Assembly: GCA_029269845.2 (NCBI GenBank)
Contig: CP149973.1
Coordinates: 540,001 to 572,000 of the forward strand
From: Opitutia bacterium KCR 482
Lineage (GTDB): Bacteria; Verrucomicrobiota; Verrucomicrobiia; Opitutales; Intestinicryptomonadaceae
DNA: 32,000 nt
Direction of reading: 5' to 3'
Position 1 is the first letter of the stretch; each line of letters starts with the position of its first letter. Positions 9,456-30,457 of this stretch are shown here, piece by piece. The position numbers and the translations under genes are program-made. The notes below the pieces were generated by a model. It saw only the letters and a list, made by a program, of their open reading frames with translations. It had not been told where the DNA came from and ran no database searches.

Positions 9456-9459
9456 TGTT

Positions 9460-10569: not shown

Positions 10570-10571
10570 TG

Positions 10572-11195: not shown

Positions 11196-11204
11196 AAGAA
11201 AAAA

Positions 11205-11909: not shown

Positions 11910-11927
11910 ATTGGATAATGAAAAATG

Positions 11928-12554
11928 TTATTGCCAAGTAAAGACGTTTTCGGAGCTGAAATCCGCCGTCGCGCTGAACGAGTCCTTTTTGAGCGTAAAG
12001 ATTATCGCCTTTGCGCGGATACCCGCCGTGGGGTTCGGCACTATTTCCTTGATTTCCTGAACGGTGAAGCCGTCGGTGATTGCGGGGAAGCCAGCCTTGA
12101 TGAAGCCGTCGTTGTCGCCGTCAACGCAGACGTAGATGTTGGGGTTGCCGAAGCTGTCTATAATAACCCATTTGCCCTCGCGCTTGATGATGTTCGAAGT
12201 CGCGATGTCCAAAAAGTTGCGCGATTTGCGGTTGTACTCGCGGCGGTCGCTCTGCGTGAGTCTGCCGCCTTCGGGGGTTTTGCCCGTGAGCGCCTTTATC
12301 ATGCCCTCGGAGAAGTTTTCCTGCGCGAGGTTCGTTCTGTCGCGCGAGGTGAGGAACGCGGGGTAGTATCCGTACTCCGTCTGGTAGCGTTCGAGCGCGC
12401 TTACCATGTTCGAGAAAAGCGTTTTGGAGGTCGTCGCCAACGCCCTCTTCTGCGCCCCCGAAATCATCGGGGTCAGCATGCCCACGAGCACGCCGATAAT
12501 CGCGATGACAATCATCAGTTCCACGAGTGTAAAAGCTTTTTTGCCTAGTTTCAT
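11928..12554 (-). CDS. GspG-like major pseudopilin
   Basis: 208 aa. KKAFTLVELMIVIAIIGVLVGML N-terminus and a DSFGNPNIY motif (compare GspG DPWGxPYxY). Confidence 0.75.
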   Translation of the reverse strand: MKLGKKAFTLVELMIVIAIIGVLVGMLTPMISGAQKRALATTSKTLFSNMVSALERYQTEYGYYPAFLTSRDRTNLAQENFSEGMIKALTGKTPEGGRLTQSDRREYNRKSRNFLDIATSNIIKREGKWVIIDSFGNPNIYVCVDGDNDGFIKAGFPAITDGFTVQEIKEIVPNPTAGIRAKAIIFTLKKDSFSATADFSSENVFTWQ

Positions 12555-12597
12555 ATTGTTTCCTTTTTTTGTAAATGGGGTGTGGGGTTGTAAAATA

Positions 12598-13269
12598 TTA
12601 GTCGTCGCGCCCGTAGACGATGTTGTCGAGGTTTTCCTCGGGCATTCTGTACGTTTCGTCGTCGGGCATGATTCCCGTTGTGTACATGTTGCCGACCTCC
12701 TTGATTTTCTGGTCCGCGCCCTTCGAAATCAAAAGAAACCCCGGCGAACGCCAGCTTGTGTTGCCTTCGTTTGTTACATATGCGGTTGTGTCGAAGAAAT
12801 AGAGATAGGGTTCGTTCCACGGGTCGCCGAAATAGACGCCGTTTTTTTCGGGATCTACGTCCTGCAAGAGCGGGTCCACAGGGTCGCAAATGCGGAGTTT
12901 TGAGGCGTCCACAAAGGGCTTGCGGTTTGTGCCGACTTCCGACATCACTACCTGCCCGTCGTCGAGGCGCAGAATCATTTTTCCGACAAGGCATTTGTAG
13001 AGATTGCCAGCGGCTTTCTTTTCGTCGCCGTTTGCGTTGAGGCGGGGAAAGCCGCCGTATTTTCCGGCAAAGGCTTCGAGGCTTGCGGCGATTATCGCCA
13101 TGTCGGTCTTTGCGCGGGCGCGACCCTGCGACGCGCTTACCGTGCCCAACATTTGGGTGGTAATGCCCATTAAAAGCGCGATTATGCCTATTACTATGAG
13201 AATTTCGACGAGCGTGAACGCCTTGCGGGCGCGCCGCGTCGAGGTGGGGGTAAAGTCGTAGATATTCAT
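12598..13269 (-). CDS. GspG-like major pseudopilin
   Basis: 223 aa from ATG 13269 (MNIYDF...RKAFTLVEILIVIGIIALLMG) with a GDPWNEPYLYF motif. The track start at 13308 is a TTG extension. Confidence 0.75.
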   Translation of the reverse strand: MNIYDFTPTSTRRARKAFTLVEILIVIGIIALLMGITTQMLGTVSASQGRARAKTDMAIIAASLEAFAGKYGGFPRLNANGDEKKAAGNLYKCLVGKMILRLDDGQVVMSEVGTNRKPFVDASKLRICDPVDPLLQDVDPEKNGVYFGDPWNEPYLYFFDTTAYVTNEGNTSWRSPGFLLISKGADQKIKEVGNMYTTGIMPDDETYRMPEENLDNIVYGRDD

Positions 13270-13316
13270 GTATGGGAACACGGTAGTCGGGCAAACCGAC
13301 GTTGTCAAATTTATAC

Positions 13317-14321
13317 TTAAACCGAAAACGATTTTTTACACATGTCGTAGATTTCCTCTTTGAGGCGGGGTATGCCCTCCTCGGACAGGCACGAAATCGG
13401 GATTACGTCGAGCTTGGGGTATTTGCGCAAAAACGCTTTCAGATTCTTGGGGGCGTCGGGTTCGTCCATTTTGTTGGCGGCGACGATTATCGGTTTTTTC
13501 GCCAAGTCGGGCGAGTACAATTCAAGCTCGCTCAAAAGGTTTTTATAGTCGTCTGCGGGCTTGCGGCCGTCGGCGCCCGCCATGTCGATTAGCAGAACAA
13601 GCACCTTGCAACGCTCGATGTGTCTGAGGAATTTGTGCCCCAAGCCCTTGTTTTCGCTCGCGCCGACGACAAGCCCCGGAATGTCGGCGAGCTTCAAGAC
13701 CTCGTATTTTTCGGGGTAGTCGAGCGTGCCGATGTTGACGTGCAGCGTCGTGAACGGATACGCGCCGATTTTCGGGCGCGCGGGAGTAAGCAGCGACACA
13801 AGCGACGATTTCCCCGCGTTCGGGAAGCCCACCATGCCCGCGTCGGCGATGGTTTTCAGCACGAGGTTGAACTCGCCCGATTCGCCCTCCGTGCCGTATG
13901 TGAACTGGCGCGGCGCGCGGTTTACCGAGCTTTTGAAGTGGACATTGCCCAAGCCGCCCCTGCCGCCGCGAAGCAGCAGCACGCGCTCGCCGTGGCGCAA
14001 AACTTCGGCGACAAACGCGCCCGTTTCGGCGCTGTAAATTATAGTGCCGGGGGGGACGCGCAGTTCGGCGTCTCTTCCCGACGCTCCCGTTTTCAGACGC
14101 CCCATACCCTTGCCGCCGTTTTCTGCGGAGAGGTTCGGAGTGTACTGGTAGCGTTCCAAGTCTCCGATGTTTTCGTCGCCGACAGCCCAGACGTCGCCGC
14201 CCTTGCCGCCGTCGCCGCCGTCGGGACCTCCGCGGGGAATGAATTTTTCACGGCGGAAGCCCGCGCAGCCCTTGCCGCCGTCCCCCGCTCTCAGCGATAC
14301 CGTTGCTTCATCGACAAACAT
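13317..14321 (-). CDS. obg: GTPase Obg/CgtA
   Basis: 334 aa. Glycine-rich Obg fold (GGPDGGDGGKGGDV), G1 GFPNAGKSS, G3 DIPG, G4 NKMD. Confidence 0.95.
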   Translation of the reverse strand: MFVDEATVSLRAGDGGKGCAGFRREKFIPRGGPDGGDGGKGGDVWAVGDENIGDLERYQYTPNLSAENGGKGMGRLKTGASGRDAELRVPPGTIIYSAETGAFVAEVLRHGERVLLLRGGRGGLGNVHFKSSVNRAPRQFTYGTEGESGEFNLVLKTIADAGMVGFPNAGKSSLVSLLTPARPKIGAYPFTTLHVNIGTLDYPEKYEVLKLADIPGLVVGASENKGLGHKFLRHIERCKVLVLLIDMAGADGRKPADDYKNLLSELELYSPDLAKKPIIVAANKMDEPDAPKNLKAFLRKYPKLDVIPISCLSEEGIPRLKEEIYDMCKKSFSV

Positions 14322-17135: not shown

Positions 17136-17365
17136 GTACCAAATAAACTCCACCGTTTTGCGGCTTGAAAATCTCGCAACCGCGCTCTGTCGGACGCATT
17201 CGGAGGGGCATATTACCGCCGGACGGAAACGCCGGCGGAATCGGGGACAGTCCGCTCCCGCAGACACCGACCGCCGTGCGGCATTCCACTCCGGAACGCG
17301 CAGCGCGGCGCAAGAGTCGGTCGGCGGACAAACAAACAAACGGAAATAACGAAAGACAAAATACC

Positions 17366-20143
17366 ATGGCAAAAAAAGTTGCTAAAAAAGCCCCCACCAA
17401 AAAAGCTTCCGTAAAATCGGCAAGTTCCAAAAACAAAAAATATACATACCTGTTCGGAAGCAAAACCGACGGCGACGCAAAAATGCGCAACCTCCTCGGC
17501 GGCAAGGGCGCAAACCTCGCCGAAATGGCGAGAATAGGACTGCCCGTCCCCCCCGGATTCACAATCACGACGGAAGTCTGCACGCACTTTTACGACAACG
17601 GCAAAAAATATCCCGCGTCGCTCGAAGCGCAGGTAAAGGCGGGCGTGCAGTCGGTAGAAAGGCAGATGGGCAAAATCTTCGGCGACGAAAAAGATCCCCT
17701 GCTCTTCTCCGTCCGCTCCGGCGCGAGGGAATCCATGCCCGGCATGATGGACACAATCCTCAACCTCGGTCTCAACGACAAAACCGTTGAGGGGCTTTCC
17801 GCAAAGACAAACAACCCCCGCTTTGCGTGGGACTGCTACCGCAGGTTCGTCCAAATGTACGGCGATGTCGTGATGGGCGTTCAGGCGCGGAACGAAGCCG
17901 AAACCGAGCCTTTCCACAAAGTGATGGAAACGCTGAAAGCGGAAGTCGGCGCAAAGCTCGACACAGACCTCGACGTCGCCGCGCTCAAAGAGCTTGTCAA
18001 ACGCTACAAAGCCCTGATTAGGGAACGCGCGGGCAAGAGCTTCCCGCAGGACGTATACGACCAGCTTTGGGGCGCAATCGGCGCGGTGTTCGGCTCGTGG
18101 ATGAACGAACGCGCAATCATCTACCGCCAAAAATACAACATTCCCGCAAGCTGGGGCACGGCGGTAAACGTGCAGACAATGGTCTTCGGCAACAAGGGCG
18201 AAACGAGCGCGACGGGCGTCGCCTTCACGCGCGACCCCGCAAACGGCGAAAACGAATTCTACGGCGAATACCTCATCAACGCGCAGGGCGAGGACGTCGT
18301 GGCGGGCGTACGCACCCCGCACAAAATTTCCGAACTCTCGAAGGAAATGCCCAAGGCATTCAAGGAGCTGCTGGCTATCCGCAAGAAGCTCGAATCGCAC
18401 TTCAAGGACATGCAGGACTTCGAATTTACAATCGAGGAAAACAAACTCTACATGCTCCAAACCCGCAACGGCAAACGCACGGGGCTTGCGGCGGTGAGAA
18501 TCGCGGTGGAAATGAACAAGGAACGCTTCATGGACGAAAAAACCGCCCTGATGAAAATCCCCGCAGACTCGATTTCAAGCCTGCTCGTTCCCGTGTTCGA
18601 CCCCGCGTCGGTCAAAAAGGCGAAAGTCGTCGCAAAGGGGCTGCCCGCAGGGCCTGGGGCGGCGTCGGGCGAAGTCGTGTTCACGGCGGCGCAGGCGGAG
18701 CTCGTGGCGGCGCGCGGACGCAAATCGGTTCTCTGCCGCGAGGAAACGTCTCCCGAAGACCTGCGCGGAATGATTGCCGCCGAGGGCATTCTTACATCGC
18801 GCGGCGGCGTAAGCTCGCACGCGGCGCTCGTCGCCCGCCAGATGGGCAAAGTCTGCATTTGCGGCGCAAGCGACGTCTCGATGGACTACGAAAAACGCCT
18901 CATGTCGATAGGCGACATCGTAATCAAGGAGGGCGACTACATCTCGATTGACGGCACCACGGGCGAAATTTTCCTCGGCGAAATCGACAACGCCCCGAGC
19001 GAAGTAATCCGCGTGCTTTCGGGCAAAATGAAGCCCGCCAAGAGCTACACTTACAGGCTGTTCGACACCGTCATGAAGTGGGCGGACAAATACCGCAAAC
19101 TCGGCGTCCGCACAAACGCCGACACCCCCGAACAGGCGAAGCGCGCGGTGCAACTCGGCGCGGAGGGAATCGGGCTTTGCCGCACAGAGCACATGTTCTT
19201 CGAGGGCGACAGAATCGACGCCGTGCGCGAAATGATTCTCGCGACCGACAAAACCGAACGAGAAAAGGCGCTCAAAAAACTCCTGCCCTACCAGCGCAAA
19301 GACTTCGAGGGCATATTCAAGGCGATGGACGGGCTGCCCGTTACCGTCAGACTCCTCGACCCCCCTCTGCACGAATTCCTGCCGCACGAAAGCGCGGCTC
19401 GCAACGCGCTCGCGGAAAAAATGAACCTTCCGCCCGAAATCCTCGTCGAACGCTGCAAGGCTCTTGAAGAGCAGAACCCGATGCTCGGACACAGAGGCTG
19501 CCGACTCGGCAACTGCTTCCCCGAAATCACGGAAATGCAGGCTCGCGCGATTTTCGAAGCGGCGGCTTCGCTGCTGAAAAAAGGCAAAAAAGTTAAAGTA
19601 GAAATCATGGTTCCGCTCGTCGGATTCGTGAAAGAGCTGAAATTCCAGGCGGAGACAATCGCAAAGACATGCGCGGCTGTCGAAAAGGAAAAGAAAGTCA
19701 AAATAGACTACATGCTCGGCACAATGATTGAAGTTCCGCGCGGGGCGTTGACTGCGGACGAAATCGCGGAAGTGGCGCAATTCTTCTCGTTCGGCACAAA
19801 CGACCTCACCCAAACGGGGCTTGGCATGAGCCGCGACGACGCAGGCAGCTTCCTCGGACGCTATAAGGAACTGGACATTCTGCCGAAAAACCCGTTCGCG
19901 TCAATCGACGTCGACGGCGTGGGACAGCTTGTGAGAATCGGCGCGGAAAAGGGACGCTCTGCGCGCAAAGACCTGAAACTTGGCGTGTGCGGCGAACACG
20001 GAGGCGACCCCGATTCAATCAACTTCTTCAACGACGTCGGCTTGAACTACGTCAGTTGCTCGCCGCCGCGAGTGCCCGTAGCCCGACTCGCCGCGGCGCA
20101 GGCGGCTCTCAAAACCGCCGCCGCCAAGAAGGCGAAAAAATAA
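17366..20143 (+). CDS. ppdK: Pyruvate, phosphate dikinase
   Basis: 925 aa from ATG 17366. Motifs [12 protein letters not shown], the catalytic-His region [18 protein letters not shown], and C-terminal [10 protein letters not shown]. The track start at 17165 is a TTG extension through the leader. Confidence 0.95.
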
Positions 20144-20697: not shown

Positions 20698-20946
20698 TTA
20701 TTCGGAAACAACGACCGACACCTTGCGGTGCGCACCGTCCCACTTTACGATACCGTCTTTGAGCGCGAACAGCGTGTAGTCTTTGCCTATGCCGACGTTT
20801 TCGCCGGGGTGAACCTTAGTGCCGCACTGGCGCATGATGATGTTGCCCGCCAAAACAAATTCGTCGCCGAATTTCTTTACGCCGAGACGCTGCGCGTGCG
20901 AATCGCGTCCGTTTTTCGCGCTACCCTGACCTTTTTTATGTGCCAT
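20698..20946 (-). CDS. rpmA: 50S ribosomal protein L27
   Basis: 82 aa, [24 protein letters not shown]..., a canonical L27 N-terminus. Confidence 0.97.
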
Positions 20947-20962
20947 AAATTAGTGCCCTTTC

Positions 20963-21277
20963 TTATGCTTTTACGGATTCGACCTTAACCACCGAAAGCT
21001 CCTGACGGTGACCCTGCTTGCGCTGGTAACCCTTTCTGCGCTTTTTCTTGATGATTACAACCTTTTTGCCGCGCTTGTTTTCGAGGATTTTTACGGAAAC
21101 GCTCGCGCCGTCGATGTAAGGCGAACCGAACTTGACGCCATCGCCTTCGCCGGCCATGAGAACTTCCTTGATTTCTACTGTGTCGCCCGCTTTGGAATTA
21201 ACGAAACGGTTGACAAAAAGTATGTCTCCTTCGCTGACGGTGACCTGTTTTCCCTGTATTTTGATTGTCGCTTTCAT
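20963..21277 (-). CDS. rplU: 50S ribosomal protein L21
   Basis: 104 aa with a typical L21 sequence (KQVTVSEGD...[16 protein letters not shown]), immediately upstream of rpmA. Confidence 0.95.
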
Positions 21278-21305
21278 TGTCTTATTAAAATATCAAATGG
21301 TTGAA

Positions 21306-21334
21306 ATTAAATGGTCTATCCTCTCGCGGGGCAA
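21306..21334 (-). promoter_or_regulatory. Candidate promoter for rplU-rpmA
   Basis: On the minus strand: TTGCCC (21334-21329), 17-nt spacer, TTTAAT (21311-21306), about 30 nt upstream of the rplU ATG. Motif match only. Confidence 0.3.
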
Positions 21335-21427
21335 GACTTTTTTGACCACTTTTCCCTTTTTGAATAAATAAAGAAGTTATCAAAGTACCCCCTCTTTAAA
21401 AAAAATCAAGCTTCTTTTTTGACAAAT

Positions 21428-21521
21428 GCAGGCTGGCAGCCTGCACGGCGTCGGAGCCGCGGACGCAAGGTGCGCCTCCCTACGGAGCTTCGGCAGGCTG
21501 CAGCCTGCACGGCGTCGGAGC
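21428..21521. repeat. Pair of 29/30-nt direct repeats, each containing an internal palindrome
   Basis: GCAGGCTGGCAGCCTGCACGGCGTCGGAGC (21428-21457) and GCAGGCTGCAGCCTGCACGGCGTCGGAGC (21493-21521). They are identical apart from a 1-nt indel and lie 65 nt apart start to start. Confidence 0.8.
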
Positions 21522-21544
21522 TTCGCTCCTTTCGGTGGTTATGC

Positions 21545-21570
21545 GCGGCAAGTATACTTGCCGCTTTTCT
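21545..21570 (+). terminator. Plus-strand terminator-like hairpin with no upstream plus-strand CDS
   Basis: Perfect 20-nt palindrome GCGGCAAGTATACTTGCCGC (21545-21564) followed by TTTT on the plus strand only. Confidence 0.5.
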
Positions 21571-21660
21571 CAGTTAGTTCGTATTGGCTTCGCCAATTAC
21601 TGGCATTGAAAAATCTTTTTGCTTTGCGAGAAACAAATTAAAATAGACGCGCTTCGCGCG

Positions 21661-21700
21661 AAAAAAAAAGCGGAAACCCGCAAACATGGATTCTCCGCTT
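21661..21700 (-). terminator. Minus-strand rho-independent terminator inside the long intergenic region
   Basis: On the minus strand: AAGCGGA...TCCGCTT (or the inner GCGG/CCGC) hairpin followed by a T9 run (complement of A9 at 21661-21669). A second CGCGC-GAA-GCGCG hairpin with a T-rich tail follows immediately. Confidence 0.6.
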
Positions 21701-21706
21701 ACCAAT

Positions 21707-22023
21707 CAACTCCACTTTTATCCCAACGCACTCTAAAAATCTTCGTGCGCCAGCACTGTAATTTTAGGGGCGTCAAAATGCCCCTATAAGAGTGGCTTTC
21801 CTGTATGCGCAGGGCGCGTGGCGTACGCGGCTATCCCTACGCTACGGTAGCTGGCGAAACGCCCCACCCAACTTTTATCCCAAAACAACCTAAAAAACTT
21901 CGTGCGCAAGCACTCACTATTTAGGCGCGTTAGAGTGCCGTTCAGACGGTGGCTTTCCCGCGATTGCGGGGTGCGTGGCGTACTTGGCGTACGCGAGCAG
22001 TCCGCAAGTGCGGGGAAACGCCG
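21707..22023. repeat. Tandem duplication of a roughly 157-nt structured non-coding unit (2 copies; candidate ncRNA)
   Basis: Shared blocks recur at a constant 157-nt offset: CTTTTATCCCA (21715/21872), CTTCGTGCGC (21741/21898), GTGGCTTTCC (21792/21949), GCGTGGCGTAC (21816/21973). GAAACGCC recurs at 21856/22015. Sequence between the blocks diverges but keeps hairpin potential. Confidence 0.75.
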
Positions 22024-22045
22024 TATCAACGGTGCTATAACGCGC

Positions 22046-22519
22046 CTACTCGAAGGCGGCAATTCCAGTGGGCGCATTCGATTTTATGCGGATTACGCTG
22101 AATACCGTGCCGTTTTCCGTTACGATTTTTTCGGACACAACCGAGCCGTCCTCCGACGGCAATACCGATTTTGCGATTTTTTCGTCGTGCGCCGGCATGG
22201 TGTCGACCGCAAGCTTCATCAGAGCTGCGCAGACAATCATCAGCGCCGCAACCGCCGACCATTCCAGCGCCGCGCGGACGCGGGAAGTTTTCTTTGCGGC
22301 GAAAAACGGCGAGCTTACGCCGTCGAGCGGAGCAAAAACCGCCTTTTTGCCGTAGATGGAGCACATTGCGGCATGGAGACGGCAGGACTTGTGGAAAATG
22401 TCCGCCATGCGGGGGTCGTCGCGGACGCATTTTGCGAGCAGTTCGATTTCGGCGGGAGTCGCCTCACCGTCGAGATACGACGAAACGAGTTCGTCGAATC
22501 TACCCCGCGAAATTTTCAT
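22046..22519 (-). CDS. Anti-sigma factor (single-pass membrane)
   Basis: 157 aa. Its start overlaps the sigma gene stop by 1 nt (TAATG). The N-terminus LVSSYLDGEATPAEIELLAKCVRDDPRMADIF is typical of ECF anti-sigma N-terminal domains. TM helix ALEWSAVAALMIVCAALMKLAV. Confidence 0.75.
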   Translation of the reverse strand: MKISRGRFDELVSSYLDGEATPAEIELLAKCVRDDPRMADIFHKSCRLHAAMCSIYGKKAVFAPLDGVSSPFFAAKKTSRVRAALEWSAVAALMIVCAALMKLAVDTMPAHDEKIAKSVLPSEDGSVVSEKIVTENGTVFSVIRIKSNAPTGIAAFE

Positions 22520-23115
22520 TACTTTAATTTTTCAAGTTCCTCGCGCAGATACTCGCGGGCTCTCGACAGGCGGCTCTTGACCGTGCCGACGCTCAGCCCC
22601 AGTCTGGACGCGATTTCCTCGTAGCTCAAATCCTCGGCATTGCGCAGTTTGAGAACCTCTCCGTATTTTTGAGGAAGGGCGTCAATCGCCTTGGGAAGAA
22701 GCTCGGAAAACTCGGTGAAAGCGGCGGTTTCGGCGGGGTTCTGTTCTTCGCCCTCGATGAGGTCGCAAACAGTCATGTCGCCGTCGTCGCCGACGGGAGT
22801 GTCGAGCGAAATCGACTCGCCGCGTTTGCGCCGCCACCAGTACCAGTGCTTGTTGTGGGCGAGATTTGTGGCGATATGGTAGAGCCAAGTGGAAATGGAG
22901 CAGTCTCCCCTGAAATTGCCTATGCTTTTGCGGGCGCGGATAAATGTGTCCTGCGCGACCTCCTCGGCGTCCTGCCGATTGTCGAGCAGACTGTTGGCGC
23001 GGTTGTAGATTTTATCCCAGTGGGAGTTGACCAACTCTCCGAACGCAACGTCGTCTCCGCCCTTCAAACGTTCGAGGAGGTTGTCGGAACAAGTAGATTC
23101 GGTTGTTTTTGCCAT
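22519..23115 (-). CDS. ECF-type RNA polymerase sigma-70 family factor
   Basis: 198 aa. Region 2 (DAEEVAQDTFIRARKSIGNFRG...STWLYHIATN) and region 4 HTH (LSYEEIASRLGLSVGTVKSRLSRAR). Confidence 0.9.
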   Translation of the reverse strand: MAKTTESTCSDNLLERLKGGDDVAFGELVNSHWDKIYNRANSLLDNRQDAEEVAQDTFIRARKSIGNFRGDCSISTWLYHIATNLAHNKHWYWWRRKRGESISLDTPVGDDGDMTVCDLIEGEEQNPAETAAFTEFSELLPKAIDALPQKYGEVLKLRNAEDLSYEEIASRLGLSVGTVKSRLSRAREYLREELEKLK

Positions 23116-23140
23116 AGATGCTGAATAGTCTTTGTATATT

Positions 23141-23168
23141 ATAGACGCGCAGACGGCGGAAACGTTTC
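23141..23168 (-). promoter_or_regulatory. ECF-type autoregulatory promoter candidate
   Basis: On the minus strand: TGAAAC (23168-23163), 16 nt, CGTCTA (23146-23141), about 25 nt upstream of the sigma ATG. This matches the general ECF pattern GAAC-N16/17-CGTC. The -35 lies within the palindrome GAAACGTTTC. Confidence 0.4.
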
Positions 23169-23314
23169 AAAAAAACTTGAATTTTCGCAACGAGCCGCGC
23201 GCGAAACGCGCCGTTATCGGGATAATCGTACTTTCCCGCGCGGACTCAACTTTTTTTTTCGAAAAAAAACTCCGACCGACCGACAAGCCGAAACGCGCCG
23301 AAAAACGCCAAAAA

Positions 23315-25090
23315 ATGGTTGCCAAAAGGGAGACATCAATTAAGAATACGATAAAAGAATATATGTTTGGATTTGGACTACACAAAAAAAACCGCCGCAA
23401 ACTCGCGCTGATAGACTGCGCGGACGCGTCGGTAAGCGAAACATCGCACTTCCCCGCCACGCTCGGAGGCTCCAACGACCCGCTGAAAACGGGCTTTCCC
23501 TTCCCGTTTCTCGAAGTCTCCGAAACGAAGGGCGGAAAACTTCTGCTCACGCCGACCGACCCCACCGCCGACGTGAAAATCAACGGCACCAAAATCTCCG
23601 AACCCGTGGAGCTTTCGGGAGCTGCTACAATGCAGCTCGGCGAGCGCCTCTTCTACCTTTCCGACGACCCCAAAACCATCGAAAAGGCGCGGAACATGGA
23701 CGTCTCGAAATGGCTTGTCTTCTACGCCGAAACGGGGCGGATAGAAGACGAAGTGCCGTTCGCGCGGCTGAAACAGTCGGTGCTCGGACGCGGGCTTAGC
23801 GGCGCGGGAATAGCAATCTGCCCGAAGGGCTTTGAGCTTGGCTTCATGTTCTCTTCGGTGTTCGGCGACGGCTCGGATTCCGACGCGACAGTGCCGATTC
23901 TCTCGGAAAATTCGGAGGCAATAACGTGCCCGCTCTGCTGGCTGAAATTCGACGTCGGCGACGCCATGAGCATAGCGGTTCACGAGAGCCTGCGCGGAGA
24001 TCCCGTGCTTGGGCAGGACGAAATGCTGCGCTTTCTGCCGACATCTTTCACGGAGGACGGCGTGGCAATCGACCCCGCGGGAATGCCCGCCCCCGACGTC
24101 GCATGCCCGCACTGCCGCAGAAAGCTTCCGCCGAACTACCTTGAACTCGACCGCCGCATATTCTCGATAGTGGGCGCGCCGAGCGCGGGGAAGTCGTACT
24201 ACCTGAGCGCGCTAATAAGCATGCTGCAAGGCTCGCTCTACAAAAATTTCGGCATTGTGCTCAAAGACCTCGACCCGTCGGGAAACATGCTGCTTACGCA
24301 AATGAAAAACAGCCTGTTTTCGGCAAAACGCCCCGAAGACGCGATTCTCGCAAAAACCGCGCTCGAAGGGAAGATGTACGAACGCTACCCGCGCTTCGGA
24401 AAAATAGTCGCGCTGCCCAAACCCATGACGTACTCGCTCTCGCGCGACGGCGCGGAGGGAACTTCGATAATTTTCTACGACAACGCGGGCGAACACTTCG
24501 AACCGGGGCTTGACATAGAGGAGTCGCCTGGGGCAATGCACGTGGCAAGCTCGTCGGGAATATTCTTCCTTTTCGACCCCGCCGCAAACCGCAACTTCAA
24601 GGCGGCTCTCGGCGACTATCCCGACCCGCAGCTTTCAATCGACGGACGGCTCGACCAGCAGGACACCATTTTGTCGGAAATGGAAATCCGCATAAAAAGA
24701 ATACTCGCGATTGAGCCTCTGAAAAAAATAGACACGCCGCTTGCGATTCTCATCGGCAAGTGCGACATGTGGAAACACCTGCTGAAAACGCCGCTCGCGG
24801 AGCCGATTTCCGACGGGAGGCTCGACCTCGCCGCGGTTGACTCCAACAGCGGAATTTTGCGCGACTTCCTCGCGGAAATAGACCCCACGATTCCAGCAAG
24901 CGCGGAGTCGATTTCAAGCAACATAAGGTATTTCGCCGTAAGCGCGCTGGGGCACTCGCCGCAAATGCTTCTCGACGGCGAATGCGCGGGGAAAATCGCG
25001 CCGATTCCCTCGAAAATCAAGCCGATAGACGCGGAAATTCCCGCAATCTGGCTGCTGTCGCAATCGACAAAACTCATTCCGACAAAATAG
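23315..25090 (+). CDS. FHA-like / split Zn-ribbon / P-loop GTPase fusion protein (uncharacterised)
   Basis: 591 aa from ATG 23315 (alternative ATG 23363; the track start 23132 is a TTG extension). G1 GAPSAGKS (24173-24196), G3 DNAGE (24479-24493), G4 GKCD (24755-24766), G5 SAL. Cysteine pairs CPLC...CPHC lie at 23927-24115. An FHA-like segment lies at about 23402-23665. Confidence 0.8.
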   Translation: MVAKRETSIKNTIKEYMFGFGLHKKNRRKLALIDCADASVSETSHFPATLGGSNDPLKTGFPFPFLEVSETKGGKLLLTPTDPTADVKINGTKISEPVELSGAATMQLGERLFYLSDDPKTIEKARNMDVSKWLVFYAETGRIEDEVPFARLKQSVLGRGLSGAGIAICPKGFELGFMFSSVFGDGSDSDATVPILSENSEAITCPLCWLKFDVGDAMSIAVHESLRGDPVLGQDEMLRFLPTSFTEDGVAIDPAGMPAPDVACPHCRRKLPPNYLELDRRIFSIVGAPSAGKSYYLSALISMLQGSLYKNFGIVLKDLDPSGNMLLTQMKNSLFSAKRPEDAILAKTALEGKMYERYPRFGKIVALPKPMTYSLSRDGAEGTSIIFYDNAGEHFEPGLDIEESPGAMHVASSSGIFFLFDPAANRNFKAALGDYPDPQLSIDGRLDQQDTILSEMEIRIKRILAIEPLKKIDTPLAILIGKCDMWKHLLKTPLAEPISDGRLDLAAVDSNSGILRDFLAEIDPTIPASAESISSNIRYFAVSALGHSPQMLLDGECAGKIAPIPSKIKPIDAEIPAIWLLSQSTKLIPTK

Positions 25091-25094
25091 CGAA

Positions 25095-26408
25095 ATGGCA
25101 TACCAACTCATTTACACAAGCGCGCCGGCGTCGCTCACACTGGGCAGAACGGGTTTTTCGACCGTCGCCCGCACGCGCGACATGCCCGAAAAACTCGCCG
25201 CCGCCGTCGAAAGGTGCGGAGTCTACGAAATAGGCTCCGGCGAAGTGTTCTCGCACAAAACCCTGCAATACGGCGGACAGACATGGCATATCCTCACGCG
25301 CATGCGCGACGCGGGGACGGACTACACAAACAGAAACAACTACGTCGCCCACCACATCGCGATTCCGCAAAGCGACATCGGCGGACTCGCAAATCCCGCC
25401 GAAATTCTGGCGCAGTGGAGCGGCTGGGTGTCGAAATGGAGCGGCGACCCGCGCTACGTCGGCGAAGTTTTCGGGCTTGAAAACATCAAGGCTAAAAACT
25501 CCCTGCCCGCAAAAAACTGGGAAAAATATTTCGGCAACCCCGCAAAGGCCGCGCTGCTTTCGAACTGCCCCGCGCAGATTTCGGCGTCGCCCGACGACGC
25601 GCGGACGCTGCTCGACCTCTTCTCCGAAAGCCTGCTGCTCAACGCCAACCCCGCCGACGCGTGGGACATCACGTTCACGACGTCGATGGCGTCGGGGGAA
25701 AACCCGAACGCGTTTCTCTGGAAGACCGACACGTCGGGAAACGCCGCGGCGATAAACCTTTCCGCAAAAACCGCGCCCGCCGCGCCCGACAATCGCGCCG
25801 CGAAATACGCGCTCACGGGCGAAAAAAACAACCGCGAACGCTACAATCTGAAAGTCGGCGCGCCGAAGGCGGTAGTCCGCTACGATGTGGTGGAAACGCA
25901 AAAGGGCGGCTCGAAAAACGCGCCAATCTACGGAATTTCGGCGGCGATAACGATTGGGGCAATCGCGGCGGCGGCGTTTGCGCTCATGCCCGAACGCGAA
26001 AAAACGCGCAGTTCCGACACAGAACAGCGCGAACTTCCCGTGCTTGCAAGCGCAGCCGAAACGCCGACAGGCGCGGAGGAAGAACCCGCAAAAAAGTCGC
26101 TCGCCCAGACGGCGGGGGAAGTGAGGGAAAAAATCGCCTCCGACGACTTTGCGGGGGCTTTGGAAATCTGGAAAAATTCGGGCTACTCCGAAAAAAACCC
26201 GTCGCTTGAACGCGACATTTTGGAGGACATCGGAACGCGGGCGGACTCCCTCATGCGCCGCGCCGAAAACCTGCTGACCGTCGGAACTCCGCAGACCCGC
26301 GCCGACGCCGCAAAACTGCTCGCCGCCGCGCGGCTTGCCCTCGACATTCCCGACATTCCCAAGCGCGAAACGCGCGAAACAAAATGGAAGGCTTTGAAAC
26401 AAAAATGA
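25095..26408 (+). CDS. Single-pass membrane protein with a GAP1-N2-like (GTPase-associated protein 1) N-terminal domain
   Basis: 437 aa starting 4 nt after the GTPase stop. N-terminus MAYQLIYTSAPASLTLGRTGFSTVARTRDMP...GTDYTNRNNYVAHHIAIP. TM helix at aa 277-299 (25923-25991), then a helical C-terminal tail. Confidence 0.75.
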   Translation: MAYQLIYTSAPASLTLGRTGFSTVARTRDMPEKLAAAVERCGVYEIGSGEVFSHKTLQYGGQTWHILTRMRDAGTDYTNRNNYVAHHIAIPQSDIGGLANPAEILAQWSGWVSKWSGDPRYVGEVFGLENIKAKNSLPAKNWEKYFGNPAKAALLSNCPAQISASPDDARTLLDLFSESLLLNANPADAWDITFTTSMASGENPNAFLWKTDTSGNAAAINLSAKTAPAAPDNRAAKYALTGEKNNRERYNLKVGAPKAVVRYDVVETQKGGSKNAPIYGISAAITIGAIAAAAFALMPEREKTRSSDTEQRELPVLASAAETPTGAEEEPAKKSLAQTAGEVREKIASDDFAGALEIWKNSGYSEKNPSLERDILEDIGTRADSLMRRAENLLTVGTPQTRADAAKLLAAARLALDIPDIPKRETRETKWKALKQK

Positions 26409-29167
26409 CGCCGCAACTTCTGACAGTAAAAATTCAGGCAATTCTCGGCGGGCGGTCGAACGCCTCCGACATGCAAAAACGCTCCGTCGCAACCGAATAC
26501 TACAAGCTGTGCGCCCAGACGGAATCGCAGCTGGAACACTGCGTCGCGCTAATCAAGGCGGGGCGCGACTACACCGCATTGCAGGTCGCCGAATCGTCCG
26601 ACCTGCTCGACACGCTCAACGCCCTGCTCTTCCCCGAAATCGAACAGTGGCGGGCGTTCTGCGACGGCGCAAACCTGCCCGTTCCGCCGCCGTTCGACGA
26701 CGCGCAAATAGAGCTTGTGAACTCGCTGTACTCGCGCGGAATTTCGCAAAACCACCCTCTCTACCGCGACTTCCGCAGGGCGATGCGCATGCGCAGATAC
26801 GAGGACGCGCTCGCGGTAATCAAAACGATTTCAAAAATCAACGCCTACGATGCCGAGGCGCGGCGCGAGTGCGAAAAGCTGTCCAGACGCGTCGCGTCGG
26901 CAAAGCTCGCGCAGCTCGAACGCGCGGTCGCGTCGGACGACTTCGCCGAAGCGTCTAAAATACGCGACGCCCTCGCGCCCGAAGCGGCCACGCTCTCCGA
27001 CAACAAAATCTGGCGCAACGCCGAACTCTACCTGCGCTCCCACACGGAGGAAGCCGAGCGCAAACGCTGCGCCGAAATCGTCGCCGAGCTTGAAAAACTC
27101 GACGTCGAGCGCGACTTCGCCGCCGCCGCCGACCTCGTGAACGAATTCAACCTCCTGCGCGGCGACGCCGACTTCGACGGAACGGAATTCGTCGAAAGAA
27201 TCTCCGCCGAAACCGCGAAAAAGCAGGACGCCGCGATTGCCGCCGCAAAGGCTGCGCGGGCGGCAAACCTCGCGCGGGCGGAGCTTGAAAAGCCCGACAA
27301 ATCGGAAAAACGCGCCGAAAGACTCGCGCGGCTGACAGCCCTAAAAGCGGAGGCGGCGGACGCGCTCGACGCGGAGGCGGCTAAGAGGCTCTCCTCCGAA
27401 ATCTCGAAGCTCCGCGCGGCGGCAGCGCTCGCAAAACTCGCCCTCGCGGCGGCTGTTTGCGCGGGAATAGCGGCAGTCGGCGCGGGCGCGTATTTCGCGT
27501 GGAGCTACGAAACCGCGCGGCAAAACGAAATCGCCGCCGAAAACGAAATCGCGGAAATGGAGAATCTGCGCGAGCCGTCGCACCTGCCGAAAAAAATCGC
27601 GGAGTTCGAAAGAAAATACCCGTCGAAAAAATACGCCGAAAGGCTCGCGGCATTGGCGGACTCCGCGAAAATCGCGGCAAACAGACTCGCGCGGGTAAAG
27701 GAGGCCGTGCGATCGCTCGAAAAGTTCGACCCAAAAACCGCAAAACCCGCCGACTTCGAAAAGGCGAAAAATCTGGTCGAGGAACTGCGCCTCGAAGCGG
27801 CGTCGCTCTCGCCCGTCGAGCAGTCGGTATACCGCGGAATAATCGACTCCTCGGGCAAAAGGATTTCAGCCGCAGCCGAGGAACGCAGGGCGAAAAACGC
27901 CGCCGACCTCAGGAAATACCTTGCCCAATACGAAGCCGTCGCCGAAGAGTACGAAAACTTCGCGCGGGCAAAGGCGGACATCGACCGCGACGCCGACGCC
28001 GTTCTGGAAAAGCTCCGCCCGCTCGTGGGCGAAGTGTCGGCAACGTTCAGACCGCACAGACTCGATTCCGAAAAATTCGACGAAATTTCGGTGAGGGTAG
28101 CCGACGCGAAAAACGCCTACGCGAAGTTCGACAAGCTCCGCTCCGCCCTGCTTACGTCGCAGAGCGCGGCGGAATACGCGGCGTCGCTCGAAAGCCTTGC
28201 GGAATCGGGCGCGGCGCCCGCGGAATTTTCGCGCAAGCTCTCGAAAATCGCGGAGGTAAAGGACGCCATTCTGCGCGGGCAAACGGCGGAATTCGGAACG
28301 CCCGAAGCCGCCGCGCGGCTCGACTCGGCGGGAATCGCCGCAAAGGCGTCCCTGCCCGAAAACGAAATGCTCACAAACCTCTACAAATACTCGCGCGAGG
28401 GCAGGCTCGACGTGTACACGCTCGGGAAAATCTCGGAGAAAACCTCGAAGTGGCGCGGCGGCTCTGAGGTCGTGCAGGAGGTGCGAGAAGTGGGCGCGGG
28501 CGGGAAAATACTGACAGCCCCCTACCGCAAGCACTTCATCGACGGGCGCGCCCCGCGCGGCGTTCTGCTTGTAGGCGGCGCGAAAACGGCGGAGTCAATG
28601 CTCGCCGAAAAGGCGGCGCAAACGGCGTCAAAGCAGTCGCTGCTATCCGCGCTCTCGCTTGTGGGCAACGCGCGGACTAACCCTATTTTCCGCGCCTATC
28701 TGGAAAAGCTGATTTTCGCAAAGCTCGCGGAAAACCCCGTGGAAACGCTGCTTGAATACTCGCCGAAAGCCAGGACGCGAATGGCGGCATTGGAACGCTA
28801 CGCAAAGCCGCTCGAAGCGCATTCGTGGATTTTCGAGTCGAACTCGAAAACGCGGCTCGTGGGAAGCGAGCTCTACGGCTCGCCCGCGCCCGACTATTTC
28901 GACGACGCGCGGACGCATGTCAACGCGCTGAAAATCGCGCTCGAAAACCCGCTCGAACTCGTCGGCGTGTGCGACGAAAACGGGAAGCCCTCGATATTCA
29001 GGGAGGCGGCGGGCGCGGTGTGGTCGGTGGACGCAAAGACTGGGAAATTCGGGAAGCTCGGCAGGGGAAAGCCCGCGCCGCTTGCGCCGATTTTCCGCGA
29101 GCGCAAATCGGCGGCGGAAATCATGCGAGAAGCCTCGCAAAAAGGCGCGGGCGAAAACAACGGCTAA
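26405..29167 (+). CDS. Large (920 aa) predominantly alpha-helical single-pass membrane protein, uncharacterised
   Basis: The ATG at 26405 overlaps the upstream stop (ATGA); the track alternative is ATG 26384. Ala/Glu/Lys/Arg-rich helical sequence on both sides of a central TM (LALAAAVCAGIAAVGAGAYFAW, about 27419-27502). The last 280 aa or so look like a globular mixed alpha/beta domain. Confidence 0.75.
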   Translation: MTPQLLTVKIQAILGGRSNASDMQKRSVATEYYKLCAQTESQLEHCVALIKAGRDYTALQVAESSDLLDTLNALLFPEIEQWRAFCDGANLPVPPPFDDAQIELVNSLYSRGISQNHPLYRDFRRAMRMRRYEDALAVIKTISKINAYDAEARRECEKLSRRVASAKLAQLERAVASDDFAEASKIRDALAPEAATLSDNKIWRNAELYLRSHTEEAERKRCAEIVAELEKLDVERDFAAAADLVNEFNLLRGDADFDGTEFVERISAETAKKQDAAIAAAKAARAANLARAELEKPDKSEKRAERLARLTALKAEAADALDAEAAKRLSSEISKLRAAAALAKLALAAAVCAGIAAVGAGAYFAWSYETARQNEIAAENEIAEMENLREPSHLPKKIAEFERKYPSKKYAERLAALADSAKIAANRLARVKEAVRSLEKFDPKTAKPADFEKAKNLVEELRLEAASLSPVEQSVYRGIIDSSGKRISAAAEERRAKNAADLRKYLAQYEAVAEEYENFARAKADIDRDADAVLEKLRPLVGEVSATFRPHRLDSEKFDEISVRVADAKNAYAKFDKLRSALLTSQSAAEYAASLESLAESGAAPAEFSRKLSKIAEVKDAILRGQTAEFGTPEAAARLDSAGIAAKASLPENEMLTNLYKYSREGRLDVYTLGKISEKTSKWRGGSEVVQEVREVGAGGKILTAPYRKHFIDGRAPRGVLLVGGAKTAESMLAEKAAQTASKQSLLSALSLVGNARTNPIFRAYLEKLIFAKLAENPVETLLEYSPKARTRMAALERYAKPLEAHSWIFESNSKTRLVGSELYGSPAPDYFDDARTHVNALKIALENPLELVGVCDENGKPSIFREAAGAVWSVDAKTGKFGKLGRGKPAPLAPIFRERKSAAEIMREASQKGAGENNG

Positions 29168-29173
29168 TTCCGA

Positions 29174-29569
29174 ATGAAAAAATTTTTTCTCAGTTGGAAG
29201 GGAGCAGAAAGCGGCCCGTACTCGGCGGAGGAAATCGCCGATATGCTCGAACGCGGAAAAATCGGGCTTCTGCATCTTGTACGGACGGAATCCACACAGT
29301 GGCGGCCGCTGAAAGACGCGAACCTGCAAACCGATTTCGACGCCCCGCAAAGCGCGTCGAAAACCGACATTCTTGCGCCGATAGTCTACGCGGCGGCGGG
29401 GCTTGCGTTCCTGTCGCCGTGGGTGCTTGCGGCGTCGGGCGCGATGTCGGTGTTCTTGTGGATTTCGGGCGACAGGAAATCGGCGGCGTTTTCGTTCGCT
29501 CTGGCGGCGTTGATTGCGTGCGCGGGACTGGCGTTTTTCGGCATCGTATACCCTGCGGTGGCGGAGTGA
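29174..29569 (+). CDS. GYF_2-like domain protein with two C-terminal TM helices
   Basis: 131 aa starting 6 nt after the previous stop. FFLSWKGAESGPYSAEEIADMLERGKIGLLHLVRTESTQWRPL fits the GYF_2/DUF4339 pattern (W..G...GPys.eEi..m...G.i......v......W.pl). Two hydrophobic helices follow. Confidence 0.65.
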   Translation: MKKFFLSWKGAESGPYSAEEIADMLERGKIGLLHLVRTESTQWRPLKDANLQTDFDAPQSASKTDILAPIVYAAAGLAFLSPWVLAASGAMSVFLWISGDRKSAAFSFALAALIACAGLAFFGIVYPAVAE

Positions 29570-29623
29570 TTTTCCCGCGTAAAAAGGTTGCGAAATCCGC
29601 GCCGCTGTGGTTTCGTTATATAT

Positions 29624-30457
29624 GTGGACGATAATAAGAAAATCCTGTTCGTAGTGAACAAAACGAAAACTTCGGCGGAGGAAATCGCCGAAAAGCTTTC
29701 GAAACTCGCACTCGCAAACGGAATGTCGTGCGAAATCTGCGCCGACTTCCCCGTGCCCGAAAGCGCGTTCAAAGACAAGGACATCTGCTGCGTCATCGGC
29801 GGCGACGGCACAATACTCTCGTGCGTGCCCGCAATCGCAAAGTACGACCTCCCCGTCTTCGGCATAAACCTCGGCAAGCTCGGATTTTTGGCGACGTACA
29901 CCGACGAAATTTCCGAGGCGGAATTCCTTTCGCTCGTGCGCGGGGAACGCCGCGTGCTCGAACGCGCATTGCTCGAAGTAGTCTACAACGGCAGAAGATA
30001 CCTTGCGCTCAACGACCTCGTTTTCAAGGACGTCAGGCTCGACGGAATCTCGAAGTTCGCGATTTTCGCAGACAAGGAGTTCATCGCAACCTATGCGGGC
30101 GACGGTCTGATTTTTTCGACGCCCACGGGTTCGACCGCATACAACCTTTCGGCGGGCGGCCCGATTATCCACCCCAAGGGAAGGGTTTTCGCGATGACGC
30201 CCATCTGCCCCCACACGCTCTCGAACAGAAGCCTCATCTACGACTACGGCGCGCAGATAAAAATCGAATGCGTAAGCGGCGAAAGCGCGCTAATCGCCGA
30301 CGGCAAAAAAGTGGCAACCCTCACGCAGGGCTCGTCGGTGGAAATCAGCATGCCGTCGAACACGATACGCTTCGTGCGCCTGCGCGGGCACTCGCATTTC
30401 GCGATTTTAAGAAGCAAGCTCGGCTGGGCGGAAGACCCCCGAAAGTACGAAAGATGA
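29624..30457 (+). CDS. nadK: NAD kinase
   Basis: GGDGT, NLGKLGFL and DGLIFSTPTGSTAYNLSAGGPI motifs. I prefer the in-frame GTG at 29624 (MDDNKKILFVV..., 277 aa) over the track's TTG at 29588. The start is uncertain. Confidence 0.85.
   Translation: MDDNKKILFVVNKTKTSAEEIAEKLSKLALANGMSCEICADFPVPESAFKDKDICCVIGGDGTILSCVPAIAKYDLPVFGINLGKLGFLATYTDEISEAEFLSLVRGERRVLERALLEVVYNGRRYLALNDLVFKDVRLDGISKFAIFADKEFIATYAGDGLIFSTPTGSTAYNLSAGGPIIHPKGRVFAMTPICPHTLSNRSLIYDYGAQIKIECVSGESALIADGKKVATLTQGSSVEISMPSNTIRFVRLRGHSHFAILRSKLGWAEDPRKYER

Follow-up and report, generated by a model that had tools for sequence, protein, structure and literature searches.

A probable GAP1-N2-type GTPase operon conserved beside an ECF sigma/anti-sigma pair in Opitutia

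GTPase-centric systems composed of a DO-GTPase and a GTPase-associated protein 1 (GAP1) were predicted computationally by Kaur, Burroughs, Iyer and Aravind (eLife 2020; PMC7159879). According to that work, a conserved Glu in Walker B marks the DO-GTPase family, the GTPase of GAP1-N2-type systems usually carries N-terminal zinc ribbons (usually two), GAP1 is often fused to C-terminal transmembrane (TM) helices, and two GTPases occur in just 38% of GAP1-N2-type systems, to which a rapidly evolving fibronectin type III (FNIII)-repeat protein and variable effectors also belong. Planctomycete and verrucomicrobial systems with a GYF and TM-rich partner, having a pair of GYF domains, were described as well, as were pore-forming SLATT effectors (PMC7159879). 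A search of a literature collection, including one by Pfam accessions, found no later paper on these families. Here we analyzed a locus within a 32,000-nt stretch of DNA from Opitutia bacterium KCR 482 (contig CP149973.1, positions 540,001 to 572,000; hereafter the window, numbered from its first nucleotide), in which four plus-strand genes, designated P1 to P4, lie next to a pair of genes for an extracytoplasmic function (ECF) sigma factor and its anti-sigma factor.

We found that P1 to P4 form a real four-gene operon encoding a putative membrane-anchored GTPase switch. The locus is very probably a system of the GAP1-N2/DO-GTPase2 class, given that P2 has a GAP1-N2 domain, the relatives of P1 match DO-GTPase2, and P4 combines a GYF_2 domain with TM segments. 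It would thus be a variant, in the Planctomycetes-Verrucomicrobia-Chlamydiae (PVC) lineage, of the GAP1-N2-type GTPase-centred membrane systems, which are a known, purely predicted kind of system rather than a new kind. Three features go beyond the text of Kaur et al.: the P3 family, the lack of an FNIII protein and variable effectors, and the conserved link with the ECF sigma/anti-sigma pair. The words "sigma" and "ECF" occur zero times each in the main text of that paper, and the part of its supplement that was searched lists no Opitutales entries.

Four coupled genes and the families of their products

The four genes are translationally coupled. The TAG of P1 (25088-25090) is followed after a 4-nt gap by the ATG of P2 (25095), the P2 stop and P3 start overlap as ATGA at 26405-26408, and the TAA of P3 (29165-29167) lies 6 nt before the ATG of P4 (29174). 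This tight coupling is not due to chance, since the same gene order with junctions of a few nt recurs in about 75 other loci. The sigma and anti-sigma genes overlap by 1 nt and are divergent from P1. All of the 31 aligned P1 homologues start at residue 17 of a 591-aa version of P1 (MFGF...), and the ATG of that version (23315) lies immediately 5' of the -35 hexamer in a likely promoter at 23319-23347; therefore, P1 most likely starts at 23363 and comprises 575 rather than 591 aa. Simple hydropathy analysis indicated one TM segment each in P2, P3 and the anti-sigma factor; P4 had two hydrophobic stretches, and P1 showed no such segment.

P1 is predicted to be a cytoplasmic TRAFAC GTPase with intact motifs at G1 (GAPSAGKS), G3/Walker B (DNAGE), G4 (GKCD) and G5 (SAL). 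In the alignment of its homologues, GAPSxGKS, DNAGE, GKxD, SAL and the four cysteines C205/C208/C264/C267 were invariant. The AlphaFold2 (AF2) model of P1 had a mean predicted local distance difference test (pLDDT) score of 73, exceeding 80 across most of the FHA and GTPase parts and falling below 50 for residues 219-260 of the Cys4 region, in which one Cys4 unit is visible. In Foldseek searches against the PDB, residues 30-116 resembled the FHA domains of Ki67 and KIF13B (TM-score 0.73, root-mean-square deviation 2.3-2.7 Å) and the C-terminal 300 residues resembled EF-Tu, atlastin, G-alpha and Ras. The N-terminal FHA-fold module is degenerate. A role as a phospho-threonine reader was considered and rejected: judged from sequence and regular-expression searches, the Opitutia orthologues lack the canonical residues GR...SxxH, and there is no adjacent kinase. 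In Opitutia this module is more likely a phospho-independent interaction module.

An exhaustive search found the core of P1 formed by ribbon plus GTPase (residues ~200-585) in 1376 clusters at 50% identity. In nearly all relatives checked, ~55 aa separate the two CxxC pairs and a further 19 aa lead from the second pair to Walker A. The DO-GTPase2 family PF19993 was matched by 21 of 36 distant P1 relatives (27-54% identity), and several close homologues carry a precomputed PF19993 annotation. Among these 36 relatives the N-termini were varied, with FHA domains in five, GYF_2 in two, and a protein kinase, a TIR domain, an FGE-sulfatase and a GAP1-N2+M fusion in one each. Some of the GTPase relatives carry canonical FHA domains.

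P2 matched GAP1-N2 (PF20013) with an E-value of 2.2e-19 (70 bits, cut-off 24), and this domain was found in 29 of 29 P2 orthologues. GAP1-M was detected in two of the 29 (best E 2e-5), and a Pfam scan of P2 and the 29 orthologues gave no match to GAP1-C. The GYF_2 match of P4 (E 5.8e-5) fell just under the Pfam cut-off; the family was matched by 8 of 21 P4 orthologues, with a best E-value of 8.9e-8, and both a WKG...GP.S...G.IGLLH motif and a TM motif, Y..CG..FL.P, are conserved among them. In freshwater Opitutia the P4 orthologues are longer, at ~210 aa (loci L046, L058, L065 and L079; e.g., L046:6825-7457), and those of L046, L058 and L079 have a PPPPPG stretch in the linker between GYF domain and TM segments, to which the GYF domain could bind either within its own chain or in trans.

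P3 belongs to a family without a name. No Pfam family was matched by the window protein or by 28 orthologues, no PDB fold matched its AF2 model below E 1e-3, and a profile search against the PDB returned only apolipoprotein, designed-coiled-coil and amphipathic-helix noise. The model, with a pLDDT of 85, starts with an N-domain built of helices and continues through long helices and the TM helix into a further helical region that contains two small beta modules. In the P3 alignment the N-domain motif HPLYRDYRRAMR and the exposed loop LP..P.D are very conserved and the position of the TM helix is kept, while the region after it is highly variable and the C-terminal part moderately conserved. 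No N-terminal signal peptide was seen, and the charge bias at the TM helix, read from the sequence rather than with a dedicated tool, favors an N-terminus on the inside. A word-indexed search with P3 found only 30 homologues. Profile-profile comparison of Opitutia P3 with proteins of ~980 aa from planctomycete GAP1-N2 operons by hhalign gave a probability of 99.9% (E 1.4e-31, columns 12-533, 511 columns), with an alignment that runs from the N-domain through the TM helix to the membrane-proximal helices and leaves the C-terminal halves unaligned. By these comparisons P3 is a conserved fourth component in the Opitutia and planctomycete loci examined, one that is unnamed in the text of Kaur et al. 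Binding of the P4 GYF domain to the PPPF loop of P3 is speculative, because only the LP...P..D core of this proline loop is conserved across clades.

Searches for further known components gave negative results. PADLOC-DB v2 returned zero families for P1-P4 at E-values up to 1, NCBIfam gave no matches for these four proteins, and no enzymatic effector domain was found in them with Pfam, PADLOC and NCBIfam. Neither P1-P4 nor their orthologues had a Pfam match of the fn3 type, and the P3 model is mostly helical. Pfam and NCBIfam scans likewise gave no match to MglA, MglB or roadblock families.

A preliminary description of this DNA, made from the sequence alone, had anticipated much of this architecture. 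The packing of the four genes (a 4-nt gap, an ATGA overlap and a 6-nt gap) and the divergence of the ECF pair agree with the ORF coordinates at every junction, while the 591 aa given for P1 and the divergent gap of about 200 nt likely become 575 aa and 247 nt. Its domain readings also held up: a P-loop GTPase fused to FHA-like and zinc-ribbon modules is supported by the AF2 and Foldseek folds and the Cys4 motif, a GAP1-N2-like N-terminus on a membrane protein by the PF20013 match and single TM helix of P2, a 920-aa helical membrane protein by the AF2 model and TM segment of P3, and a GYF-like membrane protein by the GYF_2 match and TM segments of P4. Profile scans of P1-P4 found none of the nuclease, protease, TIR or similar effectors that the description had reported as not visible. 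Features of the locus are collected in Table 1.

Table 1. Coordinates of genes, promoters and protein regions at the locus (P1 residues in the numbering of the 591-aa version)
Feature	Position	Strand	Basis
Anti-sigma factor, 157 aa	22046-22519	minus	ORF (open reading frame) table
ECF (group 4) sigma factor, 198 aa	22519-23115	minus	Pfam and NCBIfam matches
Putative ECF-type promoter in sigma direction, GAAAC-N16-CGTCT(A)	23143-23168	minus	pattern search
Putative sigma-70-like promoter for P1-P4, TTGCCA-17-AAGAAT, preceded by A-tract	23319-23347	plus	promoter scan
P1, putative switch GTPase, 575 aa	23363-25090	plus	ATG 23363; 591 aa from ATG 23315
P1, FHA-fold domain	residues 30-116, nt 23402-23662	plus	Foldseek
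P1, Cys4 ribbon C205/C208...C264/C267	nt 23927-24115	plus	alignment
P1, TRAFAC GTPase domain	residues 279-591, nt 24149-25087	plus	Foldseek, motifs
P2, GAP1-type partner, 437 aa	25095-26408	plus	GAP1-N2 match
P2, GAP1-N2 domain	residues 1-119, nt 25095-25451	plus	PF20013
P2, probable GAP1-M region, divergent	residues about 120-275	plus	
P2, TM helix	residues 276-299, nt 25920-25991	plus	hydropathy
P2, C-terminal helical part, about 138 aa, predicted outside membrane		plus	
P3, single-pass membrane protein of unnamed family, 920 aa	26405-29167	plus	AF2 model, TM segment
P3, conserved helical N-domain, predicted cytoplasmic	residues 1-~160	plus	motif HPLYRDYRRAMR
P3, exposed loop LPVPPPFDD	residues 88-98, nt 26666-26698	plus	
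P3, coiled-coil	between N-domain and TM helix	plus	
P3, TM helix	residues 336-366, nt 27410-27502	plus	hydropathy
P3, part after TM helix, about 550 aa, predicted outside membrane	small beta modules at residues 659-727 and 851-898	plus	
P4, putative GYF-TM adaptor, 131 aa	29174-29569	plus	GYF_2 match, TM segments
P4, GYF_2-like domain	residues 8-48, nt 29195-29317	plus	Pfam
P4, hydrophobic C-terminal half, 2-3 TM helices	residues 66-131, nt 29369-29566	plus	hydropathy

Conservation of the locus and promoters of the divergent units

A scan of a genome collection with the P1 alignment returned 482 relatives, and we assessed the Opitutia context in the best 80 loci, determining gene content by ORF calling and phmmer searches with the window proteins. 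All 80 were of Opitutia-type Verrucomicrobiota; nearly all were labelled as Opitutia, Opitutales, Puniceicoccales or unclassified Verrucomicrobiota metagenome-assembled genomes (MAGs), with two odd labels, and the closest was Opitutia bacterium UBA4654 (98% identity). The order anti-sigma<-sigma / P1->P2->P3->P4 was present wherever the contig permitted. A divergent sigma gene lay within 1.2 kb of P1 in 70 of the 80 loci, or 70 of the 77 that were informative; among the remaining ten, three had no upstream DNA, one had a 7-kb insertion and six had unrelated upstream genes. Loci without the sigma gene showed no alternative conserved upstream partner. The six-gene block is a conserved unit, because it stays the same while its outer flanks change, from rplU-rpmA and nadK in the gut clade to a phosphoenolpyruvate (PEP)-utilising enzyme in the freshwater clade.

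Median identities to the window proteins within the gut clade were 65% for P1, 64% for NadK, 69% for the sigma factor and 81% for L21, and 43%, 41%, 35% and 34% for the anti-sigma factor, P2, P3 and P4, respectively. By these values the divergence of P1 does not outpace that of NAD kinase. The remainder of the window is of a housekeeping kind (glnD, a NUDIX gene, queH, pilin-like genes, obg, argH, PPDK, tRNA-Met, rpmA and rplU), and one distant homologue sits among rsfS, nadD, phoH, recR, lpxI and panB. The adjacency of the sigma gene in 70 of 77 loci, the similar identities of P1 and NadK, the housekeeping neighbors and the absence of a PADLOC match together suggest vertical, housekeeping-like behavior, and the distribution looks like that of a vertically inherited housekeeping or envelope locus rather than of a mobile, arms-race defence island.

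The sigma factor has Pfam matches to Sigma70_r2 (E 1.6e-12), Sigma70_r4_2 (E 2.6e-18) and Sigma70_ECF (E 3.6e-8) and an NCBIfam match to the sigma70-ECF superfamily over its cut-off (E 8.9e-31). Its partner was assigned as an anti-sigma factor on context and motif rather than on a significant profile match, the similarity to zf-HC2 being weak and not significant (E 0.054). It has an N-terminal helix F..LVS.YLDGEA...L..C, a TM segment at residues 81-110 and a short, variable external tail (about 47 aa); 22 orthologues retain both the YLDGE-type helix and the TM segment. The reclassification of ECF sigma factors (PMC7826278) mentions neither GTPase, FHA nor Verrucomicrobia in its text.

The pattern GAAAC-N14-19-CGTCT has a single match in the window, at 23143-23168 on the sigma strand. 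A relaxed form, G[AGT]A[AC][CT]-N15-18-GTC[TA][AT], sits 11-65 nt upstream of the sigma gene in 28 of 41 gut-clade loci, with a background rate of 0.015 per 150 nt, and was found in the P1 direction in none of the 41. This suggests that the sigma operon is autoregulated. Upstream of P1, TTGCCA-17-AAGAAT (23319-23347) is the sole sigma-70-like site, and related loci likewise have, about 55-60 nt ahead of P1, an A-tract followed by (G)TTGC[CA] together with a hexamer resembling a -10 element. We infer, at the level of consensus, that P1-P4 has its own housekeeping-type promoter. In the freshwater Opitutia clade the gap between sigma gene and P1 is only about 26-95 nt, and no promoters were definable in it.

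Four planctomycete loci (L083-L086) were retrieved with distant GTPase representatives as queries. Their order is GTPase, GAP1-N2+GAP1-M protein, zero to two small genes, and an unannotated protein of 978-1009 aa; a GYF_2 gene then follows in three of the four, combined with DUF4190 in L083 and PLDc_N in L085, and L086 instead carries its GYF_2 domain as a fusion with the GTPase. The ECF link appears to be specific to Opitutia, since none of the four has an adjacent sigma gene; in one (L085) a sigma region-2 protein is encoded about 6 kb upstream. Ser/Thr kinase genes lie directly upstream of the GTPase gene in L083 (6167-7726) and L085 (2529-7976), the latter having a kinase-FGE-sulfatase fusion as well. 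Together with the canonical FHA domains of some GTPase relatives, this suggests that planctomycetes may use a kinase input in place of the ECF pair of Opitutia.

Several further observations concern the surroundings of the operon. In the locus with the insertion (L047:3004-9974, an Opitutales MAG), about 7 kb with a DEAD-box helicase gene lies between the sigma gene and P1, and ~2.5 kb more separates P1 from P2. Downstream of P4, the NAD kinase gene (29570-30457) starts after about 20-55 nt, and nadK is also found 3' of P4 in most gut-clade loci and is missing there in the freshwater clade; a promoter/terminator scan found no convincing terminator between P4 and nadK, so read-through and co-transcription are possible. 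Between rplU and the anti-sigma gene lie about 770 nt (21278-22045) of lower GC content (~0.49), with no convincing ORF, tRNA or Rfam match and with terminator-like hairpins at 21545-21564 (plus) and 21648-21660 (minus); this interval is only about 150 nt in related loci (L002, L004). Farther off, the co-directional minus-strand genes at 8886-13294 are possibly a pseudopilin or type II secretion-like cluster: two (11205-11909, 11928-12554) have a type IV pilin/pseudopilin N-terminal methylation motif, and around them are four unannotated ORFs (8886-9455, 9460-10569, 10572-11195, 12551-13294). The PPDK-like ORF (17165-20143) appears to have a lysine/alanine-rich N-terminal tail just before the conserved enzyme start and reaches further upstream to a TTG codon. 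Finally, obg is commonly clustered with rplU-rpmA in bacteria; in the window obg (13317-14321) is ~6 kb from rplU-rpmA (20698-21277), with argH, a gene for a beta-helix protein, PPDK and tRNA-Met between them.

A possible envelope-spanning switch and its alternatives

Taken as a whole, the locus is best explained as a vertically inherited, envelope-spanning, GTP-gated switch that is a variant of the GAP1-N2 type, an explanation that we consider to have about an even chance of being correct. The housekeeping mechanism that we outline for it is tentative, plausible as it stands and open to considerable doubt. P1 would cycle between GTP and GDP on a cytoplasmic platform made of the N-domains of P2 and P3 and the GYF domain of P4, and the external parts of P2 and P3 would sense the state of the envelope or the extracellular space and bias this cycle. 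The P4 GYF domain may serve as an adaptor, perhaps on the conserved proline loop of P3, in a manner resembling the GYF domain of GltJ in the MglA switch; alternatively, and speculatively, its ligand might be the GMPAPD segment of P1. Transcription of P1-P4 would start from the sigma-70-like promoter of the operon itself and would not depend on the ECF sigma factor. Should the two divergent units be functionally linked, the more likely route would lead from the switch to the membrane anti-sigma factor, which would be the best local candidate for an output, being co-inherited, with an external tail of only about 47 aa. We regard such a functional link between switch and anti-sigma factor as rather unlikely, and as unlikely the more far-reaching proposal that P1-P4 is a core envelope-spanning GTPase machine of PVC bacteria, not an immune one, that in Opitutia gates the ECF sigma factor through its short-tailed anti-sigma factor. 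If this proposal were true, it would amount to a previously undescribed, GTP-gated way of activating an ECF sigma factor, with P3 as its transmembrane sensor or scaffold.

Several observations weigh against the switch as we propose it, and some of them favor an anti-invader system acting in biological conflict or abortive infection, in which GAP1 and P3 would sense the invader, the GTPase would set a threshold, and the GYF-TM protein and/or P3 would perturb the membrane. The GAP1 class is purely predicted, from one comparative-genomics paper, and its authors read the family as a biological-conflict system (PMC7159879), so that the locus belongs to a class defined in those terms. The TIR, protein kinase or FGE-sulfatase N-termini on distant GTPase relatives fit immunity, as do the published TM-rich GYF partners and pore-forming SLATT effectors (PMC7159879), and rapid evolution is seen in the external, sensor-like parts of P2, P3 and P4 (median identity 34-41%), as in arms-race sensors. 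P1 itself scores below the cut-off for DO-GTPase2 PF19993 (E 2.9e-4, 21 bits, cut-off 27). The adjacent sigma gene is lacking in 6 of the 77 informative Opitutia loci and in all four planctomycete loci, and the synteny of the sigma gene with P1-P4 could be inherited gene order without functional coupling. Sigma-70-like sites in the region are no commoner than in shuffled sequence, and the P1 promoter is a consensus match only. On the other side, the architecture is invariant over 80 species-level loci, with no swapping of effectors, and occupies an orthologous chromosomal position among housekeeping genes, where P1 is as well conserved as NadK; PADLOC gave no match, no nuclease, protease, TIR or other effector was found, the window ORFs scanned include no mobile-element genes, and the P1 promoter looks constitutive. 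An anti-invader role is, on this evidence, something that we find fairly improbable while taking it seriously.

The neighboring sigma factor raises another explanation, namely that P1-P4 is its regulon, induced by envelope stress from the shared intergenic region. ECF sigma factors often control neighboring genes, 70 of 77 loci keep the two units side by side in divergent orientation, and in the window the -35 element GAAACGTTTC forms a palindrome. However, no CGTC follows this palindromic element at a suitable spacing on the plus strand, the ECF -35/-10 pair occurs toward P1 in none of 41 loci vs. 28 of 41 toward the sigma gene, and a conserved A-tract with a TTGC[CA] sigma-70-like element stands at the right distance from the P1 start; we consider the regulon explanation very unlikely. 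That the system is categorically new and unrelated to described ones is hardly credible. P3 has no family or fold match, PADLOC and NCBIfam gave no matches for P1-P4, and there is no FNIII component, yet the GAP1-N2 domain of P2, the DO-GTPase2 relatives of P1 and the GYF_2 plus TM architecture of P4 make up the published PVC flavor of these systems, by which such novelty is largely refuted.

These results also bear on how the preliminary description interpreted the locus. Its candidate undescribed system survives only in the P3 family, the ECF link and the missing FNIII protein and effectors, which are not in the published text, while P1, P2 and P4 fit the published GAP1-N2 type. A single GTPase is not distinctive when only 38% of published GAP1-N2-type systems have two, and zinc-ribbon fusion and membrane-anchored GAP1 and GYF partners are already published features of that type (PMC7159879); the double GTPases, soluble all-helical partner and appended effectors with which it contrasted the locus fit the GAP1-N1 subtype, whose helical partner is GASH, not GAP1-N2. 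The profile searches that it proposed left P3 unmatched and PADLOC empty and placed P2 with GAP1-N2, the relatives of P1 with DO-GTPase2 and P4 with GYF_2, Foldseek supported a GTPase fold for P1 rather than a non-NTPase one, and the neighborhood comparison that it suggested found P1-P4 together across Opitutia loci. Of the roles that it offered, envelope signaling fits better than phage defence, given the absence of a PADLOC match, the synteny, the invariance and the housekeeping neighbors.

The locus represents a minimal GAP1 system free of effector domains, conserved among Opitutia loci that include cultured gut isolates (Intestinicryptomonas porci and Puniceicoccaceae Marseille-Q1082), and the apparently autoregulated ECF promoter offers a built-in candidate read-out. 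Two questions thereby become accessible to experiment: whether GAP1 systems serve immunity or act as housekeeping switches of the envelope, and whether an ECF anti-sigma factor can be gated by a GTPase. The analysis also defines P3 as a new conserved component common to the Opitutia and planctomycete loci examined.

Comparison with described systems

The ECF pair is comparable to sigma factors controlled by class I membrane anti-sigma factors, such as RseA-RpoE and RsiW-SigW. Like these, it pairs a sigma factor having regions 2 and 4 with a single-pass anti-sigma factor whose N-terminus bears an anti-sigma-like helix and whose gene is presumably co-transcribed, and it has an apparently autoregulatory promoter of the form GGAAC/GAAAC-N16-17-(C)GTCTA. 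Unlike in these systems, the external anti-sigma tail is very short and variable, no RseB-, RseP- or DegS-like genes were found locally, and the pair is fixed beside a GTPase operon.

For the switch itself the nearest analogue studied by experiment is GltJ of the Myxococcus gliding machinery, which we consider as a mechanistic analogue only, with homology compared no further than the GYF domain. The GYF domain of GltJ binds a proline-rich partner, its linker binds MglA-GTP and its zinc ribbon recruits a GTPase-activating protein, MglB; GYF and zinc-ribbon proteins are over-represented in Planctomycetes-Verrucomicrobia, where their operons also encode receptor-like TM proteins (Attia et al., Sci Adv 2024; PMC11135422). 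Both this system and the locus have a membrane protein with a bacterial-type GYF domain at its N-terminus, a zinc ribbon and a small GTPase, and by analogy the locus may share a nucleotide-state sensor that controls the assembly of an envelope-spanning complex. The locus differs in lacking MglB, AglZ and Agl-Glt genes, in carrying the zinc ribbon on the GTPase P1 and the GYF domain on P4, and in having a GTPase of the DO-GTPase2 rather than the MglA type.

The closest likeness is to the GAP1-N2-type systems. Both have a TRAFAC GTPase with the Walker B Glu (DNAGE in P1) and N-terminal zinc-ribbon cysteines (in P1 one Cys4 unit, which may represent one ribbon or two), a GAP1-N2 protein directly downstream of the GTPase with a C-terminal TM helix on GAP1, a GYF and TM-rich partner, an occurrence in verrucomicrobia and planctomycetes, and a predicted site of action at the membrane. 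In contrast to the published systems, GAP1-M is barely detectable among the P2 orthologues and GAP1-C is not matched in them, whereas the planctomycete counterparts have a clear GAP1-M; P4 has one GYF domain where the paper describes a pair; the helical single-pass P3 stands in the position of the FNIII-repeat protein; and in place of a variable effector array there is a fixed syntenic architecture across the class, with an FHA-fold module on P1 and an ECF sigma/anti-sigma pair kept beside the operon.

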